A DNA stretch of 60,581 nucleotides, counting the filler, from Hausera hauseri (lineage: Eukaryota), in the NCBI GenBank assembly GCA_046269625.1. It is 9 parts of 9 records of this genome, joined end to end, with 100 filler letters (N's around TTAATTAATTAA, not from the genome) between each part and the next. Parts side by side here need not be neighbours in the genome. Positions count along the whole stretch, not along the records: positions 14,730 to 19,907 come from JBJURY010315163.1; 8 more parts are not named here. The stretch is one strand, 5' to 3'. Of this stretch, positions 3,001-53,365 are shown piece by piece. The notes beneath the pieces were generated by a model, which was given only the letters and a program-made list of their open reading frames with translations, did no database searches and was not told where the DNA came from. Position numbers and translations under genes: made by a program. Numbering within the stretch: position 1 is the first letter of the stretch; every line of letters begins with the position of its first letter.

Positions 3001-6000
3001 ACTGGGTCAGTCCAAAATTCTTTTTACTCAACTCATTGTGGTGCGTCCGAATATGCAGCTGTCCGGAAATGGATCAGTCCCTAATTTTTTCAACTCAACA
3101 TATTGGGGTGAGTCCAAATGTGCAGGTGCAGAGATGGGTCAGTTCCAAATTTTTCCGACTCAACTCATTGCGTTGAATCCAAATATGCAGGTTTCCGGAA
3201 TTAGGTCAGTCCAAAATTTTTTCGTCGCAACTTATTGCGATAAGTGCGAATATGCAGGTCTTCGTAACTGGGTCAGTCCAAAACTATTTTTAACTCAACT
3301 CATTGAGGTGCGTCCGAATATGCAGGTGTACGGAACTGGATCAATCCAAAATATTTTCGACTCAACTAATTGCGGTAAGTCCGAGTAGGCAGGTCTCCGT
3401 AACGGGGTCAGTCCAAAATGTTTCCTACTCAACTCATTGCGTTGAGTCCAAATATGCAAGTGTCCGGATCTGGTTCAGTCCAAAATTCTTTCGACTCAAC
3501 TCATTACGGTGAGTCCGAATATGCATGTGTCTCAAACTGGGTCAGTCCATAATTTTTTTCTACTCAACACCATAGGGTGCGGCCGAATATGCAGGTGTCC
3601 AGAACTGGATCAATCCAAAATTTTCTCAACTCAATTCATTGCGGTGAGTCCAAATATGCATGTGTCCGGAACTGGGTCAGTCCAAAATATTTTTCGACTC
3701 AACTCATTGCGGTTAGTCCCAATATGCAGGTGTCCGGAACTGGATCAGTCCAAAATTTTTTTCGACTCAAATCATTGCGGTGTGTCCGAATATACAGGTG
3801 TCCGGAACTGGGTCAGTCCAAAATTTTTTCGACGCAATTTATAGCGAAAATTCCGAATATGCAGGTCTTCGTAATTGGGTCAGTCCAAAATATTTTGTAC
3901 TCAACTCATTGCGTTGAGTCTAAATATGCAGGTGTCCGTAAATGGGTTAGTCCAAAAGTTTTTTCGACTCAACTCACTGCGGTTAGTCCGAATATGCAGG
4001 TGTCCGGAACTGAGTCAGTCCAAAATTTCTCCGACACAACATATTGCGGTGAGTCCGAATATGCTGGTCTCCGGAATTTGGGTAATCAAAATTTTTTCCG
4101 TCTCATCTCATTGCGGTGAGTCCGAAAATGCAGATCTTCGTAACTGGGTCAATCCAAAACTTTTTTTTACTGACCTCATTGAGGTGCGTCCGAATATGCA
4201 GGTGTCCGGAACTGGATCAGTCCCGAATTTTTTCAACTCAACTTATTGCGGTGAGTCCAAATGTGCAGGTCCAGAGATGGGTCAGTCCAAAATTTTTCCA
4301 ACTCAACTCATTGCTGTGAGTCGAAATATGCAGGTCTCCGTAACTGGGTCAGTCCAAAACTTTTTTTTACTCAACTCATTGAGGTGCGTCCGAATATGCA
4401 AGTGTCCGGAACTGGGACAGTCCAAAATTTTTCTACTCAACCCATTGAGGTGCGTCCGAATATGCAGGTCTTCTTAACTGGGTCAGTCCAAAATTTATTT
4501 TACTCAATTCATTGAGGTGCGTCCGAATATGCAGGTCTTCGTAATTGGGTCAGTCCAAAACTTTTTTTACTCAACTCATTGAGGTGCGTCCGAATATGCA
4601 GGTCTTCGTAACTGGGTCAGTCCAAAACTTTTTTTTACTCAACTCATTGAGGTGCGTCCAAATGTGCAGGTGTCCGGAATTGGATCAGTCCAAAATTTTT
4701 CCGAATCAAATAATTGCAGTGAGTCCGAATATGCAGGTCTCCGTAACTGGGTCAGTCCAAAATATTTTCTACTCAACTTATTGCGTTGAGTCCAAATATG
4801 CAAGAGTCCGGAACTGGGTCAGTCCAAAATTTTTCCGACACAACTAGTTGCTGTGAGTCCGAATATGCAGGTCTCCGTAACTGGGTCAGTCCAAAATATT
4901 TTCTACTCAACTTATTGCGTTGAGTCCGAATATGCAGGTGTCCCGAACTGGGTCAGTCCAAAATTTTTTCGACGCAATTTATTGGGATAAGTCCGAATAT
5001 GCAGGTCTTCGTAATTGGGTCAGTCCAAAATGTTTTCTACTCAACTCATTGCGGTGAGTCCGAATATGCAGGTGTCCTGAACTGGGTCAGTCCAAAATTT
5101 TTCCGACTCAACTAGTTGCTGTGAGTCCGAATTTGCAGGTCGCCGTAACTGGGTTAGTCCAAAATGTTTTCTGCTCAACTCATTGCGTTGAGTCCAAATA
5201 TGCAAGTGTCCGGAACTGGGTCATTCCGAAATTTTTTTCGACTCAATTCATTGCGTGGAGTCCAAATGTGCAGGTGTCCGGAATTAGGTCAGTCCAAAAT
5301 TTTTTGCGAATCATCTTATTGCGATGAGTCCTAATATGCAGGTCTCCAGAATTGGGTTAGTCCAAAATTTCTCCGACACAACTTATTGAGGTGAGTCCGA
5401 ATATACAGGTCTCCGGAATTAGGTCAATGCGAAATTTTCTCCGACTCAACTCATTACGGTGAGTCCGAATATGCAGGTGTCCCGAACTGGGTCAGTCCAA
5501 AATTTTTTCGACGCAATTTATTGGGATAAGTCCGAANNNNNNNNNNNNNNNNNNNNNNNNNNNNNNNNNNNNNNNNNNNNNNNNNNNNNNNNNNNNNNNN
5601 NNNNNNNNNNNNNNNNNNNNNNNNNNNNNNNNNNNNTTGCGTGGAGTCCAAATGTGCAGGTGTCCGGAATTAGGTCAGTCCAAAATTTTTTGCGAATCAT
5701 CTTATTGCGATGACTCCTAATATGCAGGTCTCCAAAACTGGGTTAGTCCAAAATTTCTCCGACTCAACACATTACGGTGAGTCCGAATATGCAGGTGTCC
5801 GGAACTGGGTCAGTCCAAAATGTTTTCTACTCAATACATTGCGTTGATTCTAAATATGCAGGTGTCCGTAACTGGGTCAGTCCAAAATATTTTCTACTCA
5901 ACTCATTGCGGTGACTGCAAATGTGCAGGTCCAGAGACGGGTCAGTCCAAAATTTTTCCGACTCAACTCATTGCGATGAGTCCTAATATGCAGGTCTCCA

Positions 6001-9000
6001 GAACTGGGTCAGCCCAAAATTTCTCGGACACAACATATTGCGGTGAGTCCGAATAAGCAAGTCTCCGGAATTTGGTTAATCCAAAATTTTTTTAGACTCA
6101 ACTCATTGCAGTGAGACTGATTATGTAGGTCTCCGGAACTGGGTCAATCCAAAATTTTTTTCGACTCAACTCATTGCGAAAGTCCGAATATGCTGTTCTT
6201 CGTTACTGTGTCAGTCCAAAGTGTTTTCTACTCAACTCATTGCGTTGAGTCTAAATATGCAGGTGTCCGTAACAGGGGCAGTCCAAAATTTTTTCAACTC
6301 AAATCATTGCGGTGAGTCCGAATATGCAGGTCTCCACAACTGGGTCAGTCAATATGTTTTCTACTCAACTCATTGCGTTGAATCCAAATATGCAGGTGTA
6401 CGGAATTAGGTCAATCCAAAATTTTTCCGACTCAACTCATTGCGATGAGTCCTAATATGCAGGTCTCCAGAACTGGGTCAGTCCAAAATTTCTCGGACAC
6501 AACATATTGCGGTGAGTCCAAATATGCAAGTCTCCCGAATTTGGTTAATCCAAAATTTTTTTAGACTCAACTCATTGCAGTGAATCCGATTATGTATGTC
6601 TCCGGAACTGGGTCAATCCAAATTTTTTTCCACTCAACTCATTGCGAAAGTCCGAATATGCATGTCTTCGTTACTGTGTCAGTCCAAAATGTTTTCTACT
6701 CAACTTATTGCGTTGAGTCTAAATATGCAGGTGTCCGTAACAGGGTCAGTCCAAAATTTTTTCAACTTAACTCATTGCGGTGAGTCCGAATATGCAAGTC
6801 TTCGCAACTGGGTCAGTCAAAAATGTTTTCTACTCAACTCATTGCGTTGAATCCAAATATGCAAGTGTCCGGAACTGGGTCAGTCCGAAATTTTTTTCTA
6901 CGCAAATATTTGGTTGAGTTTAAATATGCAGGTGTCCGGAATTAGGTCAGTCAGAAATTTTTTGCGAATCAACTTATTGCGATCAGTCCTAATATGCAGG
7001 TCTTCAGAACTGGGTCAATCCAAAATTTTTTCCGACTAAACTCATTGCGGTGAGTCCGAATATGCAGGTGTCCGGAACTGGATCAGGCCAAAATTTTTTC
7101 GCGACACAACTCAATGCGATACGTCCGAATATGCAGGTTTCCTTAACTGGGTCAGTCCAAAATGTTTGTTTACTCAACCCATTGCGTTGAGTCTAAATAT
7201 GCATGTGTCCGGAAATGGGTCAGTCCTAAATTTTTTTTGACCCATCTCATTGCGTTGAGTCCGAATATGGAGGTGTCCTAAATTGAGTCAGTCCAAATTG
7301 ATTCGACGCAACTTATTGCGATATGTCCGACTATGCAGGTATTCTTAAGTGGGTCACTCCCAAATTATTTTCGACTCAACTCATTGTGTTGATTCCAAAT
7401 TTGCAAATGTCCGGAACTGGGTCAGTCCAATTTTTTTTTTCTACTCAACTCATTGAGGTGTGTCCGAATATGCAGGTGTCCGGAACTGGGTCAGTACAAA
7501 ATTTTCTTCAACTCAACTCATTGGAGTGCGGCCGAATATGCAGGTGTCCGGAACTGGATGAGTCCAAAATTTTTTCAACAAAACTCATTGCGGTGAGTGC
7601 AAATGTGTAGGTCCAGAGATGGGTCAAACCAAAATTTTTCCGACTCAACTGATTGCGAGGAGTCCAAATATGCAGTTCGCCGTAACTGGGTCAATCCAAA
7701 ATGTTTTCTACTCAACTCATTGCGTTGAGTCCAAATATGCACGTGTCCGGAACAAGGTCAGTCCGAAATTTTTTTCGACACAATCCATTGCGTTAAGTCC
7801 AAATGTGCAGGTGTCAGGAATTAGGTCAGTGCAAAATTTTTTGCGAATCAGCTTATTGCGGTGAGTCCGAATATGCAGGTCTCCGGAATAAAGTCAATCC
7901 TAAATGTTTTCCGACTCAACTCATTGCGGTGAGTCCGAATATTCAGGTCTCCGGAATTAGGTCAATCCAAAATTTTTTCCGACTCAACTCATTGCGGTGT
8001 GTGCGAATATGCACGTGTCCGGAGCTGGGTCAATTCAAAAATTTTTTCGACTCAACTCATTGCGAAAGTGCGAATATGCAGGTCTCCGTAACTGGGCCAG
8101 TCCAAAACGTTTTCTACTCAACTCATTGCGTTGAGTCCGAATATGCAGGTGTCCGGATTTAGGTCAATCCAAAAATTTTTCCGACTCAACTCATTGCGGT
8201 GAGTCCGAATATGCAGGTGTCCGGAACTGGGTCAATCCAAAATGTTTTCTACTCAACTCATTGCGTTGAGTCTAAATATGCAGGTGTTCGTAACTGGGTC
8301 AGTCCAAAATTTTTTCGACTCAACTCATTGAGGTGCGCCGAATATGCAGGTGTCCGTAACTGGGTCAGTCCAAAATTTTTTCAACTCAACTCGTTGCGTT
8401 GAATCCAAATATGCATGTGTCCGCAACTTGGTCAGTCCGAAATTTTTTCAACTCAACTCCTTGCGGTGAGTCCAAATGTGCAGATCCAGAGCTGGGTCAG
8501 TCCAAAATATTTTTCCACTCAACTCATTACGGTGTGTCCGAATATGCAGGTGTCCGGAACTGGATCAGTCCAAAATTTTTTCAACTCAACTCATTGCGTT
8601 GAGAACAAATGTGCAGGTCCAGAGCTGGGTCATTCCGAAATATTTTTCGACACAACCCACTGCATTGAGTCCAAATGTGCAGGTGTCCGGAATTAGGTCA
8701 GTCCAAAATTTTTTGCGAATCAGCTTATTGCGATGAGTCCTAATATGCAAGTCCCCAGAACTGGGTCAGTAGAAAATTTCTCCGAAACAACTCATTGCGG
8801 TGAGTCCGAATATGCAGGTCACCGGAATTAGGTCAATCCAAAATTTTTTCCGACTCAACTCATTGCGGTGAGTCCGAATATGCAGGTCTCCGGAACTGGG
8901 TCAATCCAAAACATTTTTCGACTCATCTCATTTTGAAAGTCCGAATATGCAGGTCTCCGTAACTGGGTCAGTCCACAATGTTTTCTACTCAACTCCTTGC

Positions 9001-12000
9001 GTTGAGTTTAAATATGCAGGTGTCCGTAACTGGGTCATTCCAAAATTTTTTCGACTCAACTCATTGAGGTGCGTCCGAATATGCAGGTGTCCGGAACTGG
9101 TTCAGTCCAAAATTTTTTTAACTCAACTCGTTGCGGTAAGTGCAAATGTGCAGGTCCAGAGATGGGCAGTCCAAAATTTTTCCGACCCAACTCATTGCGC
9201 TGAGTCCAAATATGCAGGTCTCCGTAACTGGGTCAGTCCAAAATGTTTTCTACTTAACTCGTTGCGTTGAGTCCGAATATGCATGTGTCCGCAACAGGGT
9301 CAGTCCGAAATTTTTTCAACTCAACTTATTACGGTGTGTCCGAATATGCATGTGTCCGGAACTGGATCACTATAAAATTTTTTCAACTCAACTCATCGCG
9401 TTGAGACCAAATGTGCAGGGCTAGAGCTGGCTCAGTCCAAAATTTTTCGACTTAACTCATTGCGATGAATGCATATGAGCAGGTGTCCGGAAATGGATCA
9501 ATCCAAAATTTTTCCGACTCAACTAATAGCGGTGAGTTCGAATATGCAAGTGTCCGGAACTGGGATAGTCCAAAATTTTTTTCAACTCAACTCATTGCGT
9601 TGAGTGTAAATATGCAAGTGTCAGAAACTGTGTCAGTCCGAAATTTTTTTCTACTCAACACATTGCGGTGAGTCGAAATATGCAGGTCCAGAGCTCGGTC
9701 AGTCCAAAACTTTTCGACTCAACCCATTGCGATGAGTCCACATGAGCAGGTGTCCGGAACTGGATCAGTCCAAAATTTTTCCGACTCAACTCATTGCGTT
9801 GAGTCCAAATGTGCACGTGTCCGGAATTAGGTCAGTCCAAAATTTTTTGCGAAGCAACCTATTGCGATGAGTCCTAATATGCAGGTCTCCAGAACTGGGT
9901 CAGTCCAAAATTTTTGCAACTCAACTCATTGCGGTGAGTCCGAATATGCAGGTCTCCGGAATTAGGTCAATCCAAAATTTTTTCCGACTCAACTCATTGC
10001 GAAAGTGCGAATATGCAGGTCTCCGTAAGTGGGCCAGTCCAAAACGTTTTCTACTCAACTCATTGCGTTGAGTCCGAATATGCAGGTGTCCGGATTTAGG
10101 TCAATCCAAAAATTTTTCCGACTCAACTCATTGCGGTGAGTCCGAATATGCAGGTGTCCGGAACTGGGTCAATCCAAAATGTTTTCTACTCAACTCATTG
10201 CGTTGAGTCTAAATATGCAGGTGTTCGTAACTGGGTCAGTCCAAAATTTTTTCGACTCAACTCATTGAGGTGCGCCGAATATGCAGGTGTCCGTAACTGG
10301 GTCAGTCCAAAATTTTTTCAACTCAACTCGTTGCGTTGAATCCAAATATGCATGTGTCCGCAACTTGGTCAGTCCGAAATTTTTTCAACTCAACTCCTTG
10401 CGGTGAGTCCAAATGTGCAGATCCAGAGCTGGGTCAGTCCAAAATATTTTTCCACTCAACTCATTACGGTGTGTCCGAATATGCAGGTGTCCGGAACTGG
10501 ATCAGTCCAAAATTTTTTCAACTCAACTCATTGCGTTGAGAACAAATGTGCAGGTCCAGAGCTGGGTCATTCCGAAATATTTTTCGACACAACCCACTGC
10601 ATTGAGTCCAAATGTGCAGGTGTCCGGAATTAGGTCAGTCCAAAATTTTTTGCGAATCAGCTTATTGCGATGAGTCCTAATATGCAAGTCCCCAGAACTG
10701 GGTCAGTAGAAAATTTCTCCGAAACAACTCATTGCGGTGAGTCCGAATATGCAGGTCACCGGAATTAGGTCAATCCAAAATTTTTTCCGACTCAACTCAT
10801 TGCGGTGAGTCCGAATATGCAGGTCTCCGGAACTGGGTCAATCCAAAATATTTTTCGACTCAACTCATTGCGAAAGTGCGAATATGCAGGTCTCCGTAAC
10901 TGGGCCAGTCCAAAATGTTTTCTACTCAACTCATTGCGTTGAATCCGAATGTGCAGGTGTCCGGAAATAGGTCAGTTCAAAGTTTTTTGCGAATCAACTA
11001 AATTCGATGAGTTCTTATATGCAGGCCTCCAGAACTTTGTCAGTCCAAAATTTCTCCGACACAACTCATTGCGGTGTGTGAGAATATGCACGTGTCCGGA
11101 GCTGGGTGAATTCAAAATTTTTTTCGACTCAACTCATTGCGGTGTGTGAGAATATGCACGTGTCCGGAGCTGGGTGAATTCAAAATATTTTTTGACTCAA
11201 CTCATTGCCGTGAGTTTGAATATGCAGGTCTCAGTAATTAGGTCAATCCAAATTTTTTCCGACTCAACTCATTGCGCTGAGTCCGAATATGCAGGTCTCC
11301 GTAAATGGGTCGGTCCAAAATGTTTTTTACTCTACTCATTGCGTGGAGTCTAAATATGCAGGTGTCCGTAAGTGGGTCAGTACAAAATTTTTTCGACTCA
11401 ACTCATTGCGTTGAGTGTAAATATGCAAGTGTCAGAAACTGTGTCAGTCCGAAACTTTTTTCTACTCAACACATTGCGGTGAGTCGAAATATGCAGGTCC
11501 AGAGCTGGGTCAGTCCAAAGTTTTTCGACTCAACTCATTCCGTGAGTCCAAATGTGCAGGTGTCCGGAATTAAGTCAGTCCAAAATTTTTTGCGAATCAA
11601 TTTATTGCGATGAGTCCTAATATGCATGTCTCCATAACTGGGTCAGTCCAAAATTTCTCCGACACAACTCATTGCGGTGAGTCCGAATATGCAGGTCTCC
11701 GGATTTAGGTTAATCCAAAAATTTTTCCGACTCAACTCATTGCGCTGAGTCCGAATATGCATGTGTCTGGAACTAGGTCAGTCCAAAATTTTTTTCGACT
11801 CAACTCATTGCGAAAGTCCGAATATGCAGGTCTCCGTAACTGGGTCAGTACAAAATGTTTTCTACTCAACTCATGGCGTCGACTCTAAATATGCAGGTGT
11901 CCGTAACTGGGAAAGTACAAAATTTTTTTCTACTCAACTCATTGCTTTGAGTCCAAATGTGCAGGCGTCCGGAATTAGGTCAGTCCAAAATTTTTTGCGA

Positions 12001-14629
12001 ATCAATTTATTGCGATGAGTCCTAATATGCAGGTCTCCAGAACTGGGTCAGTCCAAAATTTCTCCGACACAACATATTGCAGTGAGTCCAAATATGCAGG
12101 TCTCCGGAATATGGTTAAACCAAAATTTCTTCCGACTCAACTCATTGTGGTGAGTCCAAATATGCAAGTGTCCGGAACTGGGTTAGTCTGAAATTTTTTT
12201 CGACTCAACTCATTGCGGTGAGTCAAAATAAGCAAGTGTCCTAAACTGGGTCAGTCAAAAATTTTCTTCTACTCAACCCATTGAGATGCGACCGAATTAG
12301 CAGCTGTCCGTAACTGGGTCGGTACAAAATGTTTTCTACTCAACACATTGCGTTCAGTCCAAATATGCATGTGTCCGGAACGGGGTCAGTCCAAAATTTT
12401 TTCGACTCAACTCATTGCGTTGAGTCTAAATATCCAAGTGTCCAGAACAGGGTCAGTCCAAAATTTTTTTGAATCAATTTTTTGCGATCAGTCCTAATAT
12501 GCAGGTCTCCAGAACAGGGTCAGAGTAAAATTTCTCCGACACAACTCATTGCGGAGAGTCCGAATATGCAGGTGTCCGGAACTGGGTCAGTCCAAAATTT
12601 TTTCCGACACAACTCATTACGATCATTCCTAATATGCAGGTCTCCGGAATTTGGTTAATCCAAAATTTTTTCCGACACAAATCATTGCGGTGAGTCCGAA
12701 TATGCAGGTGTTCGTAACTGGATCAGTGCAAAATGTTTTCGCCTCAACTCATTGCGTTGAGTCCAAATATGCAGGTGTCCGGAACTGTGTCAGTCCAAAA
12801 TTTTCTTCTACTCAACTCACTGAGATGCGTCCGAATATGCAGGTGTCCGGAACTGGCTCATTCCAAAATTTTTTAGACGCAAATTATTGCGATAAGTCCA
12901 ATTATGCAGGTGTTCGTAACTGGATCAGTGCAAAATGTTTTCGCCTCAACTCATTGCGGTGAGTCCAAATATGCATTTGTCCGGAACTGGATCAGTCCCG
13001 AATTTTTTCAACTCAACTTATTGCGTTGAGTCTAAATATCCAAGTGTCCAAAACAGGGTCAGTCCAATATTTCTCCGACGCAACTCATTACGGTGTGTCC
13101 GAATATGCAGGTGTCCGGAACTGAGTCAATCCAAAATTTTTTTCTACTCAACTCATTGAGGTGCGTCCGAATATGCAGATGTCCGGAACTGGATCAGTCC
13201 AAAATTTTTTCAATTCAACTCATTGCAGGGAGTGCAAATGTGCAGGTCCAGAGCTGGTTCAGTCCAAAATTTTTCGCCTAAGCACACTGCGAATAGTGCA
13301 TATATGCTGGTGTCCAGAATTTGATCAGTACAAATTTTTCCGACACAGATAATTGCGGTGAGTCCGAATATGCAGGTGTACGTAACTGGGTCAGTCCAAA
13401 GTGTTTTCTACTCAGCTCATTGCGCTGAGTCCAAATATGCAGGTGTCCGTAACTGGGTCAGTCCACAATTGCTCCGACACAACACATTGCGGTGCGTCCG
13501 AATATGCAGGTCTCCGGAATTTGGTTAATCCAAAATTTTTTCCGACACAAAACTTTGCGGTGAGTCCGAATTTGTACTTGTCCGGAACTGGCTCACTCCA
13601 AAATTTTTTCGACGCAACATATTGCGATAAGTCCGACTATGCAGGTGTTCGTAACTGCGTCAGTCGAAAATTTTTCGACTCAACTCATTGCGTTGAGTCC
13701 GAATATGCAGGTGTCCGAAACTGGATCAGTCCAAAATTTTTTCAACTCAACTCATTGCAGTGAATGCAAATGTGCAGGTCCAGAGATGGGTCAGTCCAAA
13801 ATTTTTCCGACTCAACTCATTGCGCTGAGTCCAAATATGCAGGTCTCCGTAACTGGGTCAGTCCAAAAGTTTTTGCGAATCAATATATTGCGATGAGTCC
13901 TAATATGCAGGTCTCCAGAACTGGGTCAGTCCAAAATTTCTCCTACACAACTCATTGCGATAAGTCCGAATATGCAGGTCTCCGCAACTGGGTCATTCCA
14001 AAATACTTTCTGCTCAGCTCATTGCGTTGAGTCTAAATATGAAAGTGTCCGGAACTGGGGCAGTCCGAAATTTTTTTCGAATCAACTCATTGCGTTAAGT
14101 CCGAATATGCAGGCCTCCGTAACTGGGTCAGTCCAAAATGTTTCCTACTCAACTCATTGCGTTGAGTCCAATTATGCAGGTGTCCGGAACTGCATCAGTC
14201 CAAAATGTTTCCTACTCAACTCATTGCGTTGAATCCAAATATGCAGGTGTCCGTAACTGCATCAGTCCAAAATTTTTCCGACTCAACTAATTGCGGTGAG
14301 TGCGAATATGCAGGCCTCCGTAACTGGGTCAGTCCAAAATGTTTTCTACTCAACTCATTGCGTTGAATCAAAATATGCAGGTGTCCTGAACTGGGTCATT
14401 CCAAAATTTTATCTACTCAACTCATTGCTTTGAGTCTAAATATGCAAGTGTCCGTAACTGAGTCAGTCCAAAATTTTTTCGACTCAACCCATTGCTTTGA
14501 GTCTAAATATGCAGGTGTCCGTAACTGGGTCAGTCCAAAACTTTTCGATTCCAATCATTGCGGTGAGTCCGAATATGCAGGTTTCCGGAACTGGGTCATT
14601 CCAAAATTTTTTCGACGCAACTTATAGCG
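1..14629 (+). repeat. Satellite DNA array, ~67-bp monomer (66-68 bp), roughly 215 copies
   Basis: Continuous head-to-tail repeats of approximate consensus gtccgaatatgcaggtgtccggaactgggtcagtccaaaattttttcgactcaactcattgcggtga (67 bp). Runs to the scaffold end. Contains a 100-N gap at 5537-5636. Confidence 0.98.
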
Positions 14630-14729
14630 NNNNNNNNNNNNNNNNNNNNNNNNNNNNNNNNNNNNNNNNNNNNTTAATTAATTAANNNNNNNNNNNNNNN
14701 NNNNNNNNNNNNNNNNNNNNNNNNNNNNN
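14630..14729. other. Artificial scaffold linker N44-TTAATTAATTAA-N44
   Basis: Exactly 100 bp. The central 12-mer (14674-14685) has stops in all six frames. The same structure recurs 8 times. Confidence 0.97.
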
Positions 14730-15135
14730 AAGAAAATTTACATCCAACCAGTAATGACAATTTTGCCTGTTCACTTTTCCATTTAGAAAGAATTGTGACT
14801 CATCAGAAAAGACTATTAATCTATTATACTGATTATCATGTTTAATATTAATTAGCATTACATTAAAAAAATCAAGGCGATTGGCATAATCTTCTTCATT
14901 CAACTCCTGAGAGGTAAAGATTTTAAATGGATGGAACTTGTTTTTTTTAATCCTAACAATGTACGACTGACTGACACCTGTTTCACTTGCTGCTAATCTT
15001 GTGGAGATTTGGGGATTTGTAACAAAGGTGGCTAAATTGCTGTACTTATAACTTCATCTGTGGAAGTTCTTGCCCTCCCAGAACATTTTTTGTCTGCAAC
15101 ATTTTCATCTCGATATCTGCATACTTTTCCTCCGT
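14730..15135 (-). mobile_element. Tc1/mariner-superfamily transposase fragment (DUF4817-type HTH region to first catalytic Asp), decayed
   Basis: Minus strand reads VADKKCSGRARTST...NPQISTRLAASETGVSQS...KFHPFKIFTSQELNEEDYANRLDF...IVFSDESQFFLNGKVNRQNCHYW. This matches the SGRPRT and FSDE-x-F-x-LNG-x-VNRQN-x-R-x-W signatures. Has an internal stop and is cut by the scaffold end. Confidence 0.88.
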
Positions 15136-15564
15136 TGTGGTATGTATGGAGCGGGGATCGGTGCCAAGCCCGTAAAAGTTGCAACGGAAAATGGCAGACG
15201 AAAAATACGCAACTTTGAATGCAAAGCACCGATGACGCGCTCGGAAATATTAAAATTCTTGTCTAATGATAATAAGGAAAAAGATTGAGCGTCTATTTGT
15301 GTCATAGGGACCAAAAGACACGATGAAATTAATATGACAGAAAATGAAAAATTCAGAAGGAACCTGTATGGGATGACAAGGATTAAAATGATAGAAGAAA
15401 TAAGTCAAAAGAATCTGAATGGTATTAGGGAATGGTCGTCAGAAGGGAATTGAAGAAAAGAGAAGTTAAACCATCTGAAGAAAGGCGTCACAGTGGAACA
15501 AAGTAAACTGAGAAAATTAAACGGCAAAGTTATGAGAGAAAATTCTGTCCCCCCAGTGAAACAA

Positions 15565-15786
15565 ATGGAGAAACAAATAATTGTACGTTGTAGTGGACGT
15601 CACTACGTGATAGAGTCAATATAATTACAATCCTACCATGCTCTAATCGATCAAGTGAAGAAGTATCTAAGGATTAACGGTGAGTTTACGTTACCGTATA
15701 TCGGAAAACCACTGCGCACAGACGATGAAGTGAAGAATCTGAAGTACGGCTCAACAATTCACATAATGTTTCAGTTAAAAGGAGGA
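15565..15786 (+). pseudogene. Ubiquitin-like domain ending in di-Gly, in frame with BEL/Pao Gag
   Basis: Frame-1 translation MEKQIIVRCSGRHYVIESI*LQSYHALIDQVKKYLRINGEFTLPYIGKPLRTDDEVKNLKYGSTIHIMFQLKGG (74 codons, one stop at 15622). Aligns by eye to ubiquitin QIFVK...LIFAGKQL...STLHLVLRLRGG. Confidence 0.8.
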
Positions 15787-16897
15787 AGCGAACTGACTGC
15801 GGAGGATCTTGAAGAACGTATTGCCTAATGACGAAGACATATAAACGAATTAGCCTTTATTAGAAGGAGATTGATGGACACAAATTTGAGTGAACATGAC
15901 TACGACGTATTATACCAAAGTTACGAAAAGATTTTCTTAAATGACCAAGAAGAACTGCCTTTACTGACAACAGCAGCTAGAACATTAAAAACAAAAGAAA
16001 ACGTAACACTACTGGAGAACGAAATGGAGAAGTTAGACGAACAAAACGAGAAGATCAACACGATAATTTACTAGCGGAGCCTGTGAGATAACAAAATGGT
16101 CGCCAATGTAACATAAAAAACAGTGAATGACAAAGTGAAAGAGAAAGTAATCCTGCCGAAACTACAAAGCCTAGAGTTGCCAAAATTTGGTGGTGCAGTC
16201 TTCGAATACAACCGTTGGAGAAAAACTTTCGGTACGTGTGTGGATAAAACATTAATTTCTACCATATGCAAACAATTGCAGTTGGAAAGGTGCTTATATG
16301 GCGAGCCGAAAATGCTGACAGAAAACTTAGAATTATCGGAAGAAGGGTATAAGGCATCACTGGAAAAATTAGATTCTTACTACGGTGGTGAACAGCGCTC
16401 CTACGCGACGCTTATGACCGGAAGTCGTAAGGATCCGGGCAATAGACGAAGGAGACATTATCGGGCTAGACGAGTTAATATCACTTTTAGATGTAATAAT
16501 AGTGAGATTGAGAAATCCAGGGTGAACAGAGGAACTTGGGGAGGTTTATTGTACCAAAAACTTATGGAGAAACTCCCAGAATCAATCGTGTTACTGTGGG
16601 AAAGGCACGTCGTCGAGAAAAAGGCGAACAGGACCGTTGAAGAATTGAAGAATTGGATAGAAATAGAAGCGATGGTCAGGAGAAATGCCATAGAAAGAGT
16701 AAGAAAAATAGATGCGTTTAATACAAGTTAAGGTGGTCGATATTCGTCGTTAGGAGATGGTCGGTCGTATTTCACAAAGAAATCACAGTCGATAAAAAAG
16801 GGTTCGCGAATCCCAGTTTCAGAAAAATGATCAAGAGGTTAAAAAAGGGATACAGGCTAGCAGCACCAATTCAGAGCAAGAGGTCCGATCCCAAATA

Positions 16898-17043
16898 TGT
16901 TGGAACTACTATAAAAATGGTCAATGCAGGTTTGGGAATAATTGCAAATATTCACATGAACCTAGAAAAATGATCAGAGATGGTTATATAGGTTCTTTAT
17001 AAATGGGGGATGTAGGTATGGTGATGACTGTAAATTCCTACAT
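16898..17043 (+). pseudogene. Tandem CCCH-type zinc fingers in BEL/Pao Gag C-terminal region
   Basis: 16898-16957 CWNYYKNGQCRFGNNCKYSH is C-x8-C-x5-C-x3-H. 16987-17043 YRFFINGGCRYGDDCKFLH is (C>Y)-x7-C-x5-C-x3-H and lies in frame with the downstream protease ORF at 17095. One frameshift separates the fingers. Confidence 0.85.
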
Positions 17044-19907
17044 GAAAAAATTAGAAATAAGGAAAATAATAAAAATGGTTATAATAGAAGGAGAATGGAG
17101 AGCGAAACTGAAAATTCCTGTGCAAATATGGTAGGCACGGCACCAGAGGAGTCAGTGACACGGACGTTAAACAATAAAGAAGAAGGGGTACAAAATAAAC
17201 AAAAACGTGTCAGAACCTACGTAACCCAAGGTTCTCAGGGGGCAGACGAAAAAGAAGAAATGGTAGCTCTGAGGACAATGGAAGTATGGCTAAAGAATGG
17301 ACATAAAATGAGGAAAGCAATAATGCTGCTAGACAAATCTAGTAGGGAGAGTTTCGTAGATTCAAAAGTGTGTGAAGAGTTAGAGGTTGGTAGAAGACAG
17401 AGAGGCTGACGATAACAGTTGTCGGAGGAAAACAAACTGAGATATCCATTGGTAGGGTCAAAATGGAATTGATAAGTCTGGATCGATCGACGGAGGTCAA
17501 ATTCGCAGCGTTGGCCATGAGAAACCCAACCGGAAGGATGAGGGCAGTGAACTGGTCTATATAAATACAGAGGTAACCCCATCTAAAGAACATAAAATTC
17601 CCTACGATGTCCCACAGGTTAGAAGTGGATGGTATTATTGGGGCGAATCATATGGAATTATACCGATCAATTAAGGTATACGGCAAAAAGTGTGTGCCAG
17701 TGACGCGGTTAACTCTGTTGGGCTGGACTTGTGTTGGATAAATAAAGAAGGGAAAAAAGAACGTGAACAGCAATTTCGTAAGAACCTTTTTGACAAGGAC
17801 CGAAGAACTTCAAAATGACTTGAATTAATTGTGGGAGGTCGAAATATAGTCAAAGGAATCTCAATGAAGTATACTAAACGAGAAGATCATAAAGCAGGTA
17901 ATAGAAGAAACAACTTATGAGGAGAATAGGTACTGTGTGCCGTTACCATAAAAATGAGAAAGACAACCTAAAATGGAAAGTAACGGATGGATGGCACAAA
18001 ACGGTTAGATACTCTACGGAATAAGTTGGATAAAGATGGGAAGGTAAAGGCAGCCTACGAGAAGGTAATAGAAGCGCATACGAAGGAAAGATATATCCGA
18101 GTGGTGGAAGAACGAGCAGAACAGGAAACAGCTTGGCTGTTACCACATTTCCCGGTCATGAAAATTGACAGGGAAATAACAAAATGCCGAATAGATTTCG
18201 ATGCTGCTTCAAGATATCGGGGAAGTGTCTGAACGACTTTCTCAACCCCGGTCCAAAATTACAACTGGATATTATAGACATACTACTGAGGATGAGAAAA
18301 CGCCCATGGGTCGTCATATGTGACATCCAAGAAATGTTCTTGCAGATTAAGGTAAAGCAAGAGGATAACAAATATCTGAGATTCCTATGGTATAAGGATG
18401 AAAAACTCAAGACATACGAGTTCAATAGGTTGGTATTTGGGCTGAATGCCTCTCCGTTTATGGCGCAACTGATCTCAATGCATAAGGCCGAAAAGTTTAA
18501 AGAGAAATTCCCTAGAGATGTGGAAACAATAGAGTGCTCTACATACATGGATGACTTCATTGATTCAGTCAGTACCAAAAAGGAAGCTGTTTCACTATAC
18601 AATGAGCTAAATGAAATCTGAAAAAAGGCTGGGATGGAGCCACAGAAGTGGGTATCAAACTCCAATGAATTACTAAATTTAATACCTACTACAAGTCGAG
18701 CAAAGAAATTTAGTATAGTTGAAAAAACGGACGTTGTCACCAAGACGCTGGGGATGAAATGGAAAATCGAAGATGATACATTTGGATTTGAGAATCGCGA
18801 CAAGCAAGGGATAGAAATAACGAAAAGAACACTATGAAGTGTTCTAGCGAAGGTATTCGATCCGTTAGGCTTTCTTAATTGCTACACATTGTTGGGTAAA
18901 GTATACTTACAACAACTGTGGATGATGAATGTGGATTGGGACGAGAAGATCCCAAAGGAATAAAATGAGAAAATAAGAACATGGGTAAAAGGAATGGAGA
19001 GGTTGAGTGTAGTGAAAATACCAAGGTATTTACAATTCCAAGAGAACGGCGACAGTAAGATACATATATTTTGTGACATCTCAAGATGGGAATACGGGAC
19101 GGTAGCATATTTAAGAAATACAGTGGGAGACGAAATGAAGGTAGTAATTATATATTCGAAAGGTAAGGTGACACCAGTAAAGTCTGTAGCTATACCCGGC
19201 TGCAGTTGATGGCAGCCTGCATAGGGGTCAATCTGGAGAGGAAAGTGAGAAAGACCTTGTGCAACAATAAGGAAGACGTACAATATAGGACGGACAGTAT
19301 GAACGTACTGTACTGGATCAAAGGCTGTAGTAAGTATTACAAGACGTTTGTTGCGAATAGAGTCGGATACATCAACGAGGAATCAGCCGGAACACAATGG
19401 AGCTACGTGAAATCAGAACAAAACCCAGCAGACTACATGTCTAGGGGGTTAGACATCGAGGAACTAAAAAACAAAACAGAGTGGTGAAACGGTCCGGAGT
19501 TTCTTAAAAAGACGGAAGAACAATGGCCAAGTCAGCCCAGTGAGTTACCAAAGCCAAAGGACGAGGAAAGAAGAAAGGATGCGTTTACGTTGATGTCTTT
19601 GAGAAACATTGCGCCAGAAGGAGAAAATCGAAATCAGGAAGATGTAAACGACACGCAACAATATGTCGAGTCTCGTTGAGAGGAAATGGTCAGACGAAAG
19701 GTAGAAGAAATTGCGCAAACAGACGAAAATAATAATAGAACGAACCGAAATTGAGAAGGAATGCAAATTTAGAAATAATAAAGGAGGTCCAAGGAAAGAA
19801 GTTTTTTACAGAAATGAAAAATATACAATCTATTAAGCAAATTGACGTTAAAAGTGCCATCGCGAAGTCCAATCTCATTCTAAATGATGAAGGGGTATTG
19901 AAATCAA

Positions 19908-20007
19908 NNNNNNNNNNNNNNNNNNNNNNNNNNNNNNNNNNNNNNNNNNNNTTAATTAATTAANNNNNNNNNNNNNNNNNNNNNNNNNNNNNNNNNNNNN
20001 NNNNNNN
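19908..20007. other. Artificial scaffold linker
   Basis: N44-TTAATTAATTAA(19952-19963)-N44. Confidence 0.97.
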
Positions 20008-22668
<2,661 letters not shown>

Positions 22669-23233: not shown

Positions 23234-26200
23234 TGACAAAGGTGAAAACTACAAGGATGAAGATCAAGACGTAGACTTTGTGGTTTGACTATTCTGTTTT
23301 GGTATGGACCAGACCTTGTATCCCTTCAATGTATCTCTCTTTACTGTACTTGCTAAAAGTGACAGTTTTGCGATGTCTTTGTTTTTGTCTCTAGTTGTTA
23401 AGGTGTTTCGGGGGGGGGAATGTCACATTCTGTCGCGTTGAGTGCAGTGTCTTGCTGAGGCAAAATAGGCAAAGGAAAAGGAGTAATTGAAGGTAAATAT
23501 TTGAAATTGTCGAAGGGAGTTCCCAAAGATAAGGTGTTGGAGGGAAAAGTAGTAACTGGTAAAGAGGCGGGAGAAGTAAATGAAGTAGTGGTAGGGGTAG
23601 GATTAGTAGTTGTAGTGGATGTGTGAACAGAAACAGGAACAGAAGAAACTGGAGTAGGAGTAGAGACAGGAGTAGAGGCAGAAGGGAATGCAGGAGTCAG
23701 AAAATTTGTCGAAACTTCAGTTGGAGAGGTGTCATCTACAAGAAGGGCATGTTTCACATTATTTACATGGACTGCTATTTCCTTACCGTCTTTGAGAATT
23801 ATAGTGTTGTGGGAATGTAGTTGAATTAGCTTATAGGGCCCTAGATACTGCGGTTGAAAACCAAAGGGTGTTTGATTTCGTAGCCAAACGAACTGTGCAG
23901 AATACAAGTCGTCGGGTAAATACGTTTTATTGTTGTGTAGTATTCTACAAAACGAGTCTTTACTGACCGCGACAAAATGATCCTGTGCTGCTCTGATCTT
24001 TTCGTCTGTAGGCGTATTATCTAGGGCGGTCAATTCGAACAAGGAGCGAACCGGTGTTCCAAATAAGGCTTCGGTAGGTGAGCATCCTGTAGAAGTGGAC
24101 GGAGTGTTTCACCAGCCGAGCAGTACGAACGGTAGAAGTGTGGTCCAATTGGTGTTTGACTGCGCAAGGATCCGAAGTTATGTTTTCAAGGTTCGGTGGA
24201 AACGTTCGAGCAGGCAATTTGATTGAGGATGATAGGGTGTAGTATGAATATGATTTATACCTAATCGGTTGACTAATGATCTGAACAGATTTGATTCGAA
24301 TTGAGAGCCATGATCCGAGATGATGTAATGAGGGGATCCGAATCTACTAATCCACGTACGAATAAAAGTATCAGCTATTGTATCAGTATTTGTGCTCCGT
24401 AGTGGAATGGCTTCTGGCCATCGTGAGGCACGGTCCATCATGGTCAGAATAAATTGGTGGACGTTGTCTATTTGGAGAGGACCAACGATATCAATATGCA
24501 CAGTTTCAAAGCGTGATGTGCATGGAGAGTGGCATAATGGAGGTTTTAGGTGTTTTATTGTTTTATATATCTGACAAGGCACACATGTTTTAACCCATGC
24601 TTGCACATCGGAGCGCATGGTTGGCAACACTACTTGTCGTTGAAGTAGACGAAAGGTTGCTTTGGCTCCAGGATAATGTAACGAATGTACATTACGAAAT
24701 GCCTGTTTGTGTAAGGATGGAGCAAGAATTATCCAGGACTGTCCTGGTTTCGAGGTATCTAAGGCCACGTCATCAACTATCTGATGAAATGGGTGAAAAT
24801 TGGCGAAAAGTTGATCGAACCGACTGATCTAGATAAGAAATCAGCAACTAGGTTGTCCACACCCTCAATATGTTTGATATCGAAGTTGAAAGTTGATAAA
24901 TATGAAATTTGCCGTTCTTGTCGAGTGGAAGGATGCTTCATTGTCATTATATTAATCAGTGGCTTGTGATCAGTCTGTATAACAAAATGGCGTGCCGTAA
25001 GTAAATGTGAAAAATGTTTTAAAGCGAGGACTATTGCTAACAGTTCCCGGTCAAAAGTTGAGTATCTTGTTCCTGGTGGAGTTAATTTTCTAGAAAAGAA
25101 TTCTAGAGGCTGATTTTCTCTATTGTATAGCTGGTGTAGTACAGCTCCTACTGCAGTGTTTGATGCATCTGTAGTTAAAATTAACTCAGCGTCTGGTTTA
25201 AGGAATGCAGGTATTTCCACAATCTTTAACCCTTCACGTAACCCGTCAAAATCATTCACTAGTTGTGGCGTCCACATGATTTTCTGATGTTTTTTTCCTC
25301 CAATGAAGTGAACGAAAGGTGCTATAAGTTCCAAACAGTACGGAATATACTTGTGGGCGAAATGTAAGGTACCAAGAAAACTGCGCATTTCTGTGGTTTT
25401 CTTAGGTAGTTGGACATTTTTAAGAGTCTCAACTCGATCAGGTTGAGGTGAATGGCCCTCTGGTGAGATAATATGTCCGAGGAAATTAACACGTTTTTTA
25501 AAGAAATTACATTTCGAAAAATTGATTTGTAGATTAAACTGGTTAAGACGTTTGAATATAGATTGTAGATGTTCTTCGTGCTGTTTAACTGATGATGAGG
25601 CAACTAAGATTTCGTCAATATAGGGATGTGCAAAAGTGAAGTCTGAAAGTATTGAATCGATATGTCTTTGAAACGTCTGCGCAGCATTCCGGAGATTAAA
25701 AGGCATATACAAGTACTCGTAAAGTTTAAAAGGTGTGGTGACTGCTGTTTCCTCGATGTCTTCCGGTGCTACAGGAATTTGGTGGTAAGCCTTAGTTAAA
25801 TCGATCGTCAAATAAATTGAGGTAGTATTGAGTCGATGTAATATGTCCTTGACTAATGGTAATGGATATGCGTCCATTGTTGTTAACGTATTAAGTTGAC
25901 GATAATCGCCACATGGTCGGAAAGATCCATCTTTTTTGTACAACATGGAGAGGTAAAGACCATGGTAATTTAGATCTGCGGACGATACCTGATTGTTCTA
26001 GTTCCATAAATTCAGCTTCTACTGCCTGTTTGCGTCGCGGTGGCAATGGACGGACCTTTTGTCTAATTGACCTTTGATGTCTTGTAATTATTTGGTGTAA
26101 ATGCTATTTACTGGAGTGAAATTCCTATCTTTCTGAAGTATCCGAGGACAAAAGGCATGAACAAATTGTTGTAGACTTGAGGGTAATTGTTGGAATGTTG

Positions 26201-28619: not shown

Positions 28620-31600
28620 TTTGTTAATCGAGCATAAATTATAGCGTTTATTTAGCCTTATTTCCGTTTTAACAAATTTTAGTACTGACGCAACTTCTTC
28701 TTTACAATTTTTGTTAATATAGACTGTAGTTGGTGTAGTTTCGTAGTTCGTATGGTCATCTTCCAGTACGAGTAAATTTCAAAGATGTGTCTTTTTTGGC
28801 TACTAGTTACTGTATGTAAATCCAATTTCCTTGTTCTAAGTCGTGCGGCTTGGCCTTTTTTATCGCACTTCTTCTTTAACTGTTCTTGATATACTTAAGA
28901 TAACTCTTTTTCTATTTCCCAACACTTTTGTAATCTTGTCTGCAATACTTTGATGAAATTCTGTTTTAAATCTTCAGGATTTAACATACACGGTGTCATT
29001 CCTAAATCCGTTGGTAATTTGGCTTGTCTTCTATTCATCATGAAAATGGTGTAAATCCAGTTGCGGAATGTGGCGTGGCATTTATAGCAAATTGAGTACC
29101 TTCTAAAACTTTACCACAATCCTTCTGATCTTTTGCGACTACTGTTGACAAAATTCGTATAACCGTTGCGTTTATTCGTTGAACTATCCAGTTACGTTGA
29201 GGATGATAGACTGTCGTAGTTAAACGTTCTACCTCAAATATTTTGATAATTTGGTGAAATAATTCACTTGTAAAATTCCTTCCTGGATACGTCAAAATCT
29301 GTTCAGGTGGACTATATCTACAAGTAATTTTTCTTACTACGGCTTCTGCAAGGGTCTCAGCTTTTTGATTGATTAATGCTATTAATTCCACAAAGTGAGT
29401 TAGTCTGTCAATACATGTCAGAATGTATTTATTACTTTTGTGAGTTGCAGGTAATGATCCTACAATATCCATGAACACTGCTAGCATCGGCTTATCCGGT
29501 TCAGCAATATAGTTTCGCACTTTTCTTTGTTTATTAACGCATGCTTCACAAGCGTTTACCCATTTTTTCACATCAATATAAATGCGTGGCTAGTAATATT
29601 TGTTTAATATTCTTTCTAATGTCTTTTTCCAAGACATGTGTCCAGCTACGTACGAGTCATGTTTGACTATTAGCACTTCAGTTCGTAAACCTTTTTGTAT
29701 AACTACCAATTTTCGTCCTTTACGTTCGTAATTTAAAACATTTCCGTGACTTGATACACAATATTTATGATCGTGTCTGTATAAATGTTTTCTTAACTGG
29801 TGGACTTTTCCTGCAAATTCAATAATTTCTTGGATAACTCTATCCTTCTTCTGTTCTATCGAAATCATAATTGCTTTACCCATCGTTAAAGCTCGTTGTC
29901 TATCTACTAACTCTTCGGATTGAGTTTTCTCATTACAGAAACTGCGTTTGTTTTAGTTTTTATTCTAGATAGTACATCGGCATCGACATCTTTACTTCCG
30001 GGCTTATATTGGAATTCGATATTATATCGTGAAATTTTATCAATCTATCTATTGAGTATACACGTCGCATTATTCGCTTTTCCTTTTAAAGCCATAACGG
30101 CATTATGATCAGTAACAATTATAATTTTTTGTCCGTAGACGTAAACGTTGAAATATCGTAGAGCTTCTTTTACAGCTACCGTTTCTAACTCTGACTGAAT
30201 AATTTTTCTCGGCTTTCTTCAGTGATTGTTCGCCATAGGCGATTGGGTGTTCTAATTCCTCATCGTCACGTTCCTGGGCTAATTCGTATTCAATGCCTTC
30301 TGTACTTTCATCCATGTTAATTATCAGTGACAGATTAAATTCAAGATATTTTAAAACAAGTTTGCTTGTTAGAATTTTCTTCACTTCATCGGAAGCTTTT
30401 TGTTCGACATGTGTCCATTTCCATTTAATTCCTTTTTAGAAGGCGATACAATGGTTCATTTATTTTCGAATTATCTGGTACGTATGTAGAGTAGCATCCA
30501 CACAAGCCTAACCAATGTCTCAACTCTTTTTGGTTCTGTGGTTCTATACAGTTCGATATTTTGTTTAACAATGACTTATCTGGTTTCGGTCCTCCTTCTC
30601 TAATTATATATCCAAGATAAGTCAATGCATATTGAGCCCATTTTCGTTTCTTAGAATTCAACTTCAATCCTGCTTGGTCCAATCTCATGAGCGTATATTC
30701 AAGATCTTTTAAGTTTTCCTCTTCCGTCCTTGACGCGATCGTTACGTCGTCCAAATATGCAAATGCGTGCTCCAGTCCCATCAGCATTCTGTTCATCATT
30801 CGAGTCAAAATAGCCGGTCCGGCTGTTATCCCGAATGGCATAACGTTAAATTCGTATACGCCATCATGAATTAAAATGCTGTTTTATAGCAGTCTTTAGC
30901 CTCTATCTGTATCTGTCAATATCCGAATTGCAAGTCTAGTGTGGTAAACCATTTTGCTCTGGACAGTCTATCCAGGTCTTCTTTTACTGATGGTAATGGA
31001 AAAGAGTCTTTCATCATAAGGGTATTCAACGCTCAATAATCGATGTTTTGTGGAACCTTTTTTTCTAACCATGAGTATAGGTGAACAACAAGGTCTATAA
31101 CTTGTCTAATTATGTCGGCCTTAAGCATTTGTTCAATTTCCATTGTTATTCCAGGTCTAATGAGTGCGGCGGAGGATACCATTTCGGCATCTTTTGTTCT
31201 TCAAGATCGATTTCATTATTTAAACCAAGCTTTTTCTTAAGTGGAATCGTTAACCTCAGAGCTTTAGCTCTGCCAATATTTTCTTAGTCTTTAGAAATAA
31301 TTGATTTATAACGACACAGGGGATTGTAAAAGCGACAATATGATTCTTGTGAGAACCTAGTTTCAACATTAGGTGAAAATTCGGCATATTTATAAGGTTT
31401 TTCCTCAATAGTGATCGACGATACTTTATACGTGTGACCCAAAGTAGTGTTAGAGTAAAATTGTATTTAGGTTGGCGCATTGTCAGTTATTCTGATCGGT
31501 ACACGACCTATTGATAATCTAGTTAATATATTACTGAGCACGATACTCGGGTTTAACTTTTCTTTTAGTTCGAAATATACTGGGTCATTGTCGTCTTGGC

Positions 31601-49973: not shown

Positions 49974-50073
49974 NNNNNNNNNNNNNNNNNNNNNNNNNNN
50001 NNNNNNNNNNNNNNNNNTTAATTAATTAANNNNNNNNNNNNNNNNNNNNNNNNNNNNNNNNNNNNNNNNNNNN
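49974..50073. other. Artificial scaffold linker
   Basis: N44-TTAATTAATTAA(50018-50029)-N44. Confidence 0.97.
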
Positions 50074-53000: not shown

Positions 53001-53365
53001 AGTTCCGGCACCTGCATATTCGGACTTTGCGGAATGAGTTGGGTCGAAAAAATTTTTCGACCGACCCAGTTCCGGACACCTACATTTTTGGACTTAACGG
53101 AATGACTTGGGACGAAAAAATTTAGAGCGACCCCGTTCCTGAAAACCTGCATATTTCGACTTAGCGGAATGAGCTAGGACGAAACAAGTTTTGGCCTGAC
53201 CCATTCACTGGACACCTGCATATTCGGACTTAGCGGAATGAGTTAGGTCGAAAAAATATTTGGACCGAGGCAGTTCGGACACCTACATATTTTGACTCAA
53301 AGGAATGAGTTTGGACGAAAAATTTTAGAATGACTTAGTTCCAGACAGCAGAATATTTGGACTCC
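50074..53365 (-). repeat. Satellite array, diverged subfamily of the 67-bp monomer in reverse orientation (~48 copies), with a real array boundary at ~53365
   Basis: Reverse complement reads gtccaaatatgcaggtgtccggaactgggtcagtctaaaattttttcgacccaactcattccgctaa. Contains a 100-N gap at 52473-52572. AT-rich unique DNA follows (53385-54515). Confidence 0.97.

Follow-up and report, generated by a model that had tools for sequence, protein, structure and literature searches.

What takes the place of the zinc knuckles in the Gag protein of a BEL/Pao retrotransposon is the question raised by a locus of Hausera hauseri. Retroviruses and LTR retrotransposons are regarded as sharing the CCHC knuckle as their nucleocapsid motif, and a set of three such knuckles is taken to characterize belpaoviruses. 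In a stretch of 60,581 nucleotides (filler included) from assembly GCA_046269625.1, referred to here as the window, a preliminary description had noticed a pair of CCCH zinc fingers at the position of these knuckles and had proposed that a captured host domain replaced the RNA-packaging module.

A decayed BEL/Pao element and its surroundings

The window harbors a decayed BEL/Pao LTR retrotransposon at 15.5–19.9 kb on the plus strand, enclosed by assembly spacers at 14729 and 19908, with Pfam matches in the order of the family, i.e. DUF1759 (capsid), RVT_1 and Peptidase_A17. This copy contains many stop codons and several frameshifts. The integrase and the 3′ end are cut off, the spacer at 19908 ending the element; the 3′ LTR is absent, and a repeat search of the window returned no repeat pair flanking the element. 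This dead copy represents a BEL/Pao lineage whose Gag comprises a ubiquitin-like domain (Ubl), a helical linker, a capsid and two CCCH fingers:

15571–15786, plus strand: ubiquitin-like domain, N-terminal part of Gag, ending in LKGG, one in-frame stop (57% identity to the relative P0001 over 391 residues starting here)
15787–16152, plus strand: helical, probably coiled-coil linker in the matrix position, with stops (aligns with P0001 and P0002)
16153–16710, plus strand: capsid (DUF1759; PF03564, E 1e-7), out of frame at about 16420–16540
16898–16957, plus strand: CCCH zinc finger 1, C-x8-C-x5-C-x3-H, all ligands present (motif and Pfam; PDB sequence match to tristetraprolin)
16987–17043, plus strand: CCCH zinc finger 2, spacing x7-x5-x3, Tyr as first ligand, frame different from that of finger 1 (motif and Pfam)
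17257–17741, plus strand: aspartic protease, decayed and frameshifted, LLDKSS at 17326–17343 versus LLDDAS in relatives (tblastn with P0002 and P0172)
18130–18780, plus strand: reverse transcriptase (RT), YMDD at 18544–18555, a frameshift and a stop (PF00078, E 3e-12; 90 of 148 positions identical to P0172)
18820–19484, plus strand: RNase H (the BEL/Pao-specific Pfam family Peptidase_A17), decayed (PF05380, E 3.5e-13 and 2.9e-11)
19485–19907, plus strand: linker towards the integrase, ended by the spacer at 19908

Since the spacers (N-run, TTAATTAATTAA, N-run; 14674–14685 and similar positions) join short contigs, neighbours across them need not adjoin in the genome. Directly upstream of the element lies a minus-strand fragment (14733–15053; FSDES...) that has no Pfam match at 0.001 and resembles a Tc1/mariner transposase. 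Pieces of a WD40-repeat gene (20667–22668, minus strand) adjoin the element across a spacer. Decayed gypsy-type RT, RNase H and integrase pieces are found at 23398–25997, 29041–29589 and 43938–47782 (all minus strand), with two copies about 75% alike and 20 kb apart. Two gypsy-like Gag fragments (47132–47782 and 55966–56652, both minus strand; no Pfam match) end in two successive C-x2-H-x9-C motifs, which we take to resemble the doubled CHCC motif of the CsRN1 type. An open frame of 853 residues (32687–35245, minus strand; RVT_1, E 7e-36) is non-LTR retrotransposon-like. In addition, the window contains long 67–68-bp satellite arrays in opposite orientations (1–14629 and 50070–53364) and a low-complexity triplet repeat tract (37700–42800) that is TTG/TTC-rich on the plus strand and of extreme strand skew.

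CCCH fingers in the nucleocapsid slot

In agreement with the preliminary description, which had reported a perfect finger between capsid and protease, finger 1 (CWNYYKNGQCRFGNNCKYSH, 16898–16957) is the sole C-x8-C-x5-C-x3-H match in all six frames of the 60.6-kb window and scores above the Pfam cut-offs (PF18044, 35.9 bits, E 6e-9; PF00642, 29.5 bits). Finger 2 (16987–17043, Y-x7-C-x5-C-x3-H) likewise passes the cut-offs for PF18345, PF18044 and PF00642 despite the Tyr at its first ligand, so the zf-CCCH scan that had been proposed as a check recovers both. By the general definition of such fingers (C-x7/8-C-x4/5-C-x3-H with a Pfam score above cut-off), finger 1 is thus complete and finger 2 has three of the four ligands. 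For the core G-x-C-x2-G-x2-C-x3-H, the window has just two matches, one in each finger. While the Cys-to-Tyr change and the shared core noted earlier for finger 2 stand, its spacing has to be corrected from x8 to x7, and it lies in another frame than finger 1. Because of this frameshift, the window copy does not encode the fingers as one pair. Neither the C-x7/8-C-x5-C-x3-H pattern nor the core arose in any of three frames in 20,000 base shuffles of 16731–17320.

No full CCHC regular expression match was found in six frames of 16700–17330, and a profile built from 60 triple boxes of relatives reached at most 1.2 bits on six frames of 15401–19900 versus 54–75 bits on three CCHC relatives. The earlier statement that 16731–17320 is devoid of a CCHC array is hence upheld by both approaches.

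A search with the window capsid matched P0001 (63%) and P0002 (59%). HMMER with the capsid-to-protease stretch of P0002 on 1.84 billion representatives added P0068, P0024, P0028 and P0088. A near-length search with P0068 returned only P0068 itself, the members of its cluster gave P0172, and cluster look-up also yielded P0174. Among these, P0172 is an uninterrupted Gag-Pol of 1926 residues whose catalytic motifs are intact; it contains DUF1759, the CCCH pair at 541–580, LLDDAS, YMDD, DASG, the zinc motif and core of the integrase, and DUF5641. P0174, which stems from a separate source (JGI), also carries the pair between capsid and protease, and in P0002 a single frame covers the capsid, both CCCH fingers in complete form and the protease. 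The linker between the fingers spans 3 residues in P0172 and P0174 and 10 in P0002, in which the first Cys residues are 30 residues apart. P0002, P0174 and P0068 exceed the cut-off of at least one CCCH Pfam model; full-length P0172 stays below cut-off although its sequence equals that of P0068. P0024 starts inside a finger, of which it has the tail, and continues into the protease; its contig is as long as that of P0001, and the two are likely parts of one broken element. The Gag architecture is conserved among elements whose capsids share only 42–64% identity. Since P0002, P0174 and P0172 carry it and P0172 is uninterrupted, the CCCH pair is a trait of the lineage rather than a quirk of one dead copy.

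In two predicted proteins, Gag sequence of the element is joined to host coiled-coil genes: residues ~700–1016 of P0002 are CFAP58 sequence, and the Gag of P0118 is joined to CC149. Both fusions probably reflect gene calling across intronic insertions.

Among 100 proteins spanning capsid to protease (of 170; some rows are near-duplicates), the slot holds CCHC in 95, only CCCH in 2 and neither in 3, whereby a loose CCCH regular expression also matches inside 5 of the 95 CCHC boxes. No element with both motifs was encountered, nor, within the CCCH clade, one with neither where the region was covered. The triple-box profile gave at most 1.2 bits on P0002 and P0068, and no match was listed for P0172 and P0174. 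Intact relatives with ordinary CCHC knuckles and without the CCCH pair had been named in advance as the observation that would overturn the proposal; none of the close relatives reaching the region is of this kind. Replacement of the CCHC module by the CCCH pair therefore extends across the lineage, including the intact P0172 as well as P0174 and P0002.

Further copies of the element were sought among the contigs of a sequencing run, X1, that holds the stretch and may be its source sample; no RNA dataset was among those found to hold it. As 918 contigs of this run map on the element, 647 of them with less than 90% identity, the family is large and diverged. A consensus of genomic copies had been suggested as a check: in 15 contigs, the first ligand of finger 2 is Cys instead of Tyr, and 9 contigs hold both fingers in one frame with the 30-residue period of P0002. 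Within the fingers, 10 of the 17 listed differences (those at ≥20% depth, among related, non-independent contigs) are synonymous versus an expected fraction of 0.16–0.33 (P 8e-5 to 0.02), and none of the 17 removes a ligand present in the window copy. With the reservation that the contigs are related and the table has a threshold, this excess fits purifying selection while the family spread.

Structure prediction gave an AF2 model of the finger region with a pLDDT of only 50–63. The best Foldseek match of the P0174 capsid model was the weak one to the PNMA2 capsid (E 2.5e-3), and its capsid-finger model had no Foldseek match at E≤0.001. Searches for the element and its relatives found no related locus in metagenome or viral contigs, and only protease-like clusters, under 0.9, in the ESM Atlas.

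Lineage, ubiquitin-like leader and order of events

The lineage shares with BEL/Pao (Belpaoviridae, Semotivirus) the order of DUF1759 capsid, LLD-type protease, RT, Peptidase_A17 RNase H and integrase as well as, in P0172, a single Gag-Pol ORF (PMC8742986). The corresponding Pol hallmarks (PR-RT-RH-IN with DUF1759, Peptidase_A17 and DUF5641) are complete in P0172 and present in the window up to the point where the integrase is cut off. Unlike BEL/Pao, however, the lineage lacks the triple Cys-His box, which is missing in the window element, carries two CCCH fingers instead and possesses an N-terminal Ubl. This box is called a hallmark or distinguishing feature of BEL/Pao in PMC554778 and 10.64898/2026.03.22.711591, the former of which also states that Tas lacks it. 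The ICTV profile, with Tas as its example species, does not list the box as defining (PMC8742986). Because the box is not defining there and is absent in Tas, the lineage is filed as a BEL/Pao variant on Pol evidence.

Within the family, the window RT (18226–18663) is identical to that of planarian NC-63 at 90 of 146 ungapped positions by hand count. NC-63, one of five Flow families and labelled 'New' (= Flow) in the accessible portion of PMC3118150, comes from Schmidtea mediterranea. It is about as close to the window RT as P0172 is (90/148) and closer than any CCHC relative in this study (52% at most). On account of the match to NC-63, the window element probably belongs to the Flow clade, a placement made by eye and not by tree, and its host may be a flatworm. 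As far as the accessible parts of PMC3118150 and PMC6238403 go, Flow is defined on Pol only. Since the classification rests on Pol and the words 'zinc' and 'Cys' are absent from that portion of PMC3118150, the Gag of NC-63 is undescribed there. The motif LLDDAS/LLDDGS is likewise absent from the accessible part of its supplements, in which 'protease' denotes Peptidase_A17.

In the openly available literature, our search turned up neither CCCH fingers nor a Ubl in any BEL/Pao Gag; a curated entry may exist in GyDB or in Repbase Reports, which hold a 2008 contribution on planarian BEL elements cited in PMC3118150. The accessible parts of PMC8321522, PMC2864245, PMC4157794, PMC10799480 and PMC12440569 contain no CCCH Gag. 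In these texts, 'CCCH' forms part of the name Ccchromovir (PMC2864245) or refers to a host chromatin protein and not to Gag (PMC10799480). Variation of nucleocapsid motifs as such is known from Troyka (CX2CX8-10HX4C), the third finger of Suzu, and Tas without triple box. In contrast to the present lineage, these either keep the CCHC order or lose the box, and none is described as a CCCH finger in the accessible parts of PMC12440569 and PMC554778.

All trees were built without the nucleocapsid region. In the capsid tree (104 rows, quick search; rows with <130 aligned residues, P0068 among them, were left out), the window, P0001, P0002, P0028, P0172, P0174 and P0088 form one clade (SH-aLRT 98). 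As it consists of four CCCH rows and three fragments that end before the nucleocapsid, one change between CCHC and CCCH suffices. P0026 and P0118 join this clade next (98). The RT tree (54 rows; rows with <150 aligned residues left out), a phylogeny called for at the outset to place the lineage, unites the window with the CCCH-bearing P0172 at 100/95. There, the window RT falls among DUF1759/Peptidase_A17-type relatives, far from the gypsy RT of the same window, in an ingroup chosen by similarity and free of named reference elements; the gypsy outgroup is a long branch, and the root at this position is not trusted. In a capsid-plus-protease tree of 40 hand-picked rows, support for the CCCH clade is no higher than 93/60, and without constraint P0026 does not come out as its sister, while the tree forcing the clade together with P0026 and P0118 is 5.4 lnL higher and not rejected (AU p 0.59). 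The direction of change is read from the fact that any root placed beyond the CCCH clade has CCHC elements to either side. Since CCHC lies on all sides of the clade and is general in Ortervirales according to PMC12440569, CCCH is the derived state.

For the leader at 15571–15786, Pfam gave no match, and neither did a PDB sequence search with the whole of P0001; a two-row Ubl profile only weakly matched UBL/ISG15 (E 0.1–0.2). An AF2 model of the P0001 domain with the window stretch as second row (pLDDT 82) superimposes on ubiquitin/ISG15 with TM scores of 0.72–0.78 (E 5e-4 to 1e-3). Judged by this model, the domain upstream of the capsid is ubiquitin-like, with a predicted beta-grasp fold and a C-terminal di-Gly. 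In the window, P0001, P0002, P0172 and P0026, the di-Gly end is separated from the capsid by 120–124 residues (121 in P0026). When P0172 is compared with P0001 by blastp, the body of the Ubl does not align, only the di-Gly end and the linker do.

P0026 (ENA, 799 residues) is a BEL/Pao Gag that combines an N-terminal ubiquitin (PF00240, E 4e-11) ending in LRGG with a normal triple CCHC box. It was the single ubiquitin-bearing protein in a Pfam scan of the N-termini of 30 chosen relatives (of ~100). A di-Gly motif test was positive for 4 of 65, i.e. P0001, P0172, P0026 and the distant P0021, and the literature search found no paper on a ubiquitin-Gag fusion such as that of P0026. Of the unusual Ubl-capsid-CCCH Gag suggested in the preliminary description, the Ubl thus gains support from the fold match of P0001; it is not unique to the CCCH lineage, as P0026 shows. 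Ubiquitin was likely gained before the finger swap, with P0026 as the intermediate; tree support for this order is moderate.

Proposed function, alternatives and implications

Because of its position and the loss of the canonical box, the CCCH pair is likely a functional nucleocapsid replacement. It would then bind the element RNA and draw it into the particle. As in cellular CCCH fingers, each finger would bind one zinc, and single-stranded bases would stack on the aromatics at position +2 from the second and from the third Cys, which are the base-stacking positions in TTP-type fingers. Both of these aromatics are present in both fingers of the window and of P0002; in P0172 and P0174, finger 2 retains just the one after the third Cys. 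Nonspecific RNA condensation and primer annealing could be supplied by the flanking basic residues, the linker in the nucleocapsid slot containing 24 K+R vs 14 D+E in P0172 and 26 vs 16 in P0174. That the fingers select and package the element RNA while the basic flanks do the chaperone work is a reading of the sequence that we moderately favour.

As to history, an ancestor would first have fused ubiquitin to the N-terminus of a Gag with triple CCHC box, a state kept in P0026. In a descendant, tandem CCCH fingers would then have taken the place of this box; their source was probably the mRNA of a cellular RNA-binding protein, onto which the reverse transcriptase switched templates. That a host mRNA was captured may be assumed because the fingers show the full cellular pattern and no likeness to knuckles. 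They share this pattern, the aromatic positions and PDB matches with cellular tandem CCCH proteins (TTP/ZFP36, CPSF30, MBNL). Tandem fingers of TTP/ZFP36 have a lead-in motif before each finger and an 18-residue spacer; those of the element differ by their linkers of 3–10 residues, the absence of the lead-in and their embedding in Gag. The nearest PDB matches vary from tristetraprolin for finger 1 of the window (E 2.5e-7) to CPSF30 for the pair of P0068/P0172 (E 1e-6); no donor gene was among the PDB sequence matches, and the pair is not assignable to one CCCH family. Retention of the di-Gly end suggests that host deubiquitinases may clip the Ubl leader off Gag. Whether Gag was rebuilt from host parts in these two steps, i.e. 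by a clipped ubiquitin leader and then a cellular-type CCCH module that fully replaces CCHC as genome selector, appears to us evenly balanced on the available sequences.

Cellular CCCH proteins act in mRNA decay and antiviral defence, which leaves room for another job in the element. Rather than serving in packaging, the CCCH pair might have been kept as an accessory RNA-binding module that steers element RNA to RNP granules, controls RNA stability or translation, or competes with host CCCH defence proteins, while the knuckles were lost and basic residues took over packaging. The basic linker in the slot of P0172 and P0174 would suit such a division of labour, as would Tas without triple box (PMC554778). 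Moreover, Atlas belpaovirus capsids package nucleic acid without nucleocapsid knuckles according to 10.64898/2026.03.22.711591, so that packaging may not depend on the fingers. Against an accessory role, the pair occupies precisely the place that the CCHC box has between the capsid and the protease, and elements with both motifs, or with neither inside the clade where the region is covered, were not found. We regard this main alternative as rather unlikely.

Still less probable is the formation of the fingers in place by ligand rearrangement of old knuckles without any host capture, even though the PDB matches point to no donor, Cys and His abound in the CCHC box itself, and 5 of 95 CCHC boxes accommodate the loose CCCH expression. 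The triple-box profile is virtually silent on P0002, P0068 and the window and without a listed match for P0172 and P0174, whereas the fingers display the full cellular CCCH pattern including the Gly and aromatic positions and exceed Pfam cut-offs. A chance host insertion in one dead copy or an artefact of assembly or gene calling might have been suspected, given that the window consists of short contigs joined by spacers, that its copy is decayed, and that P0002 runs into CFAP58 after residue ~700. Yet the pair is in frame in the complete ORF of P0172, in P0174, in P0002 (both ENA and JGI being represented) and in copies of run X1; P0172 refutes this explanation, and its probability is negligible.

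A lineage with an intact Gag-Pol whose knuckles were exchanged for an unrelated RNA-binding fold shows that the nucleocapsid slot is modular. A caution for annotation is that a CCCH match in an animal gene set may belong to the Gag of a retrotransposon, as exemplified by the P0002-CFAP58 chimera. The lineage lets one ask directly whether a knuckle is required for genome selection, tRNA annealing and strand-transfer chaperoning or whether an RNA-binding domain with basic residues is enough, for which P0172 (CCCH) and P0026 (CCHC, same Ubl leader) form a natural before-and-after pair. If the proposal is true, this would be the first Ortervirales Gag to package RNA through CCCH fingers and would offer a natural experiment on how far the functions of the nucleocapsid, one by one, depend on the knuckle fold.
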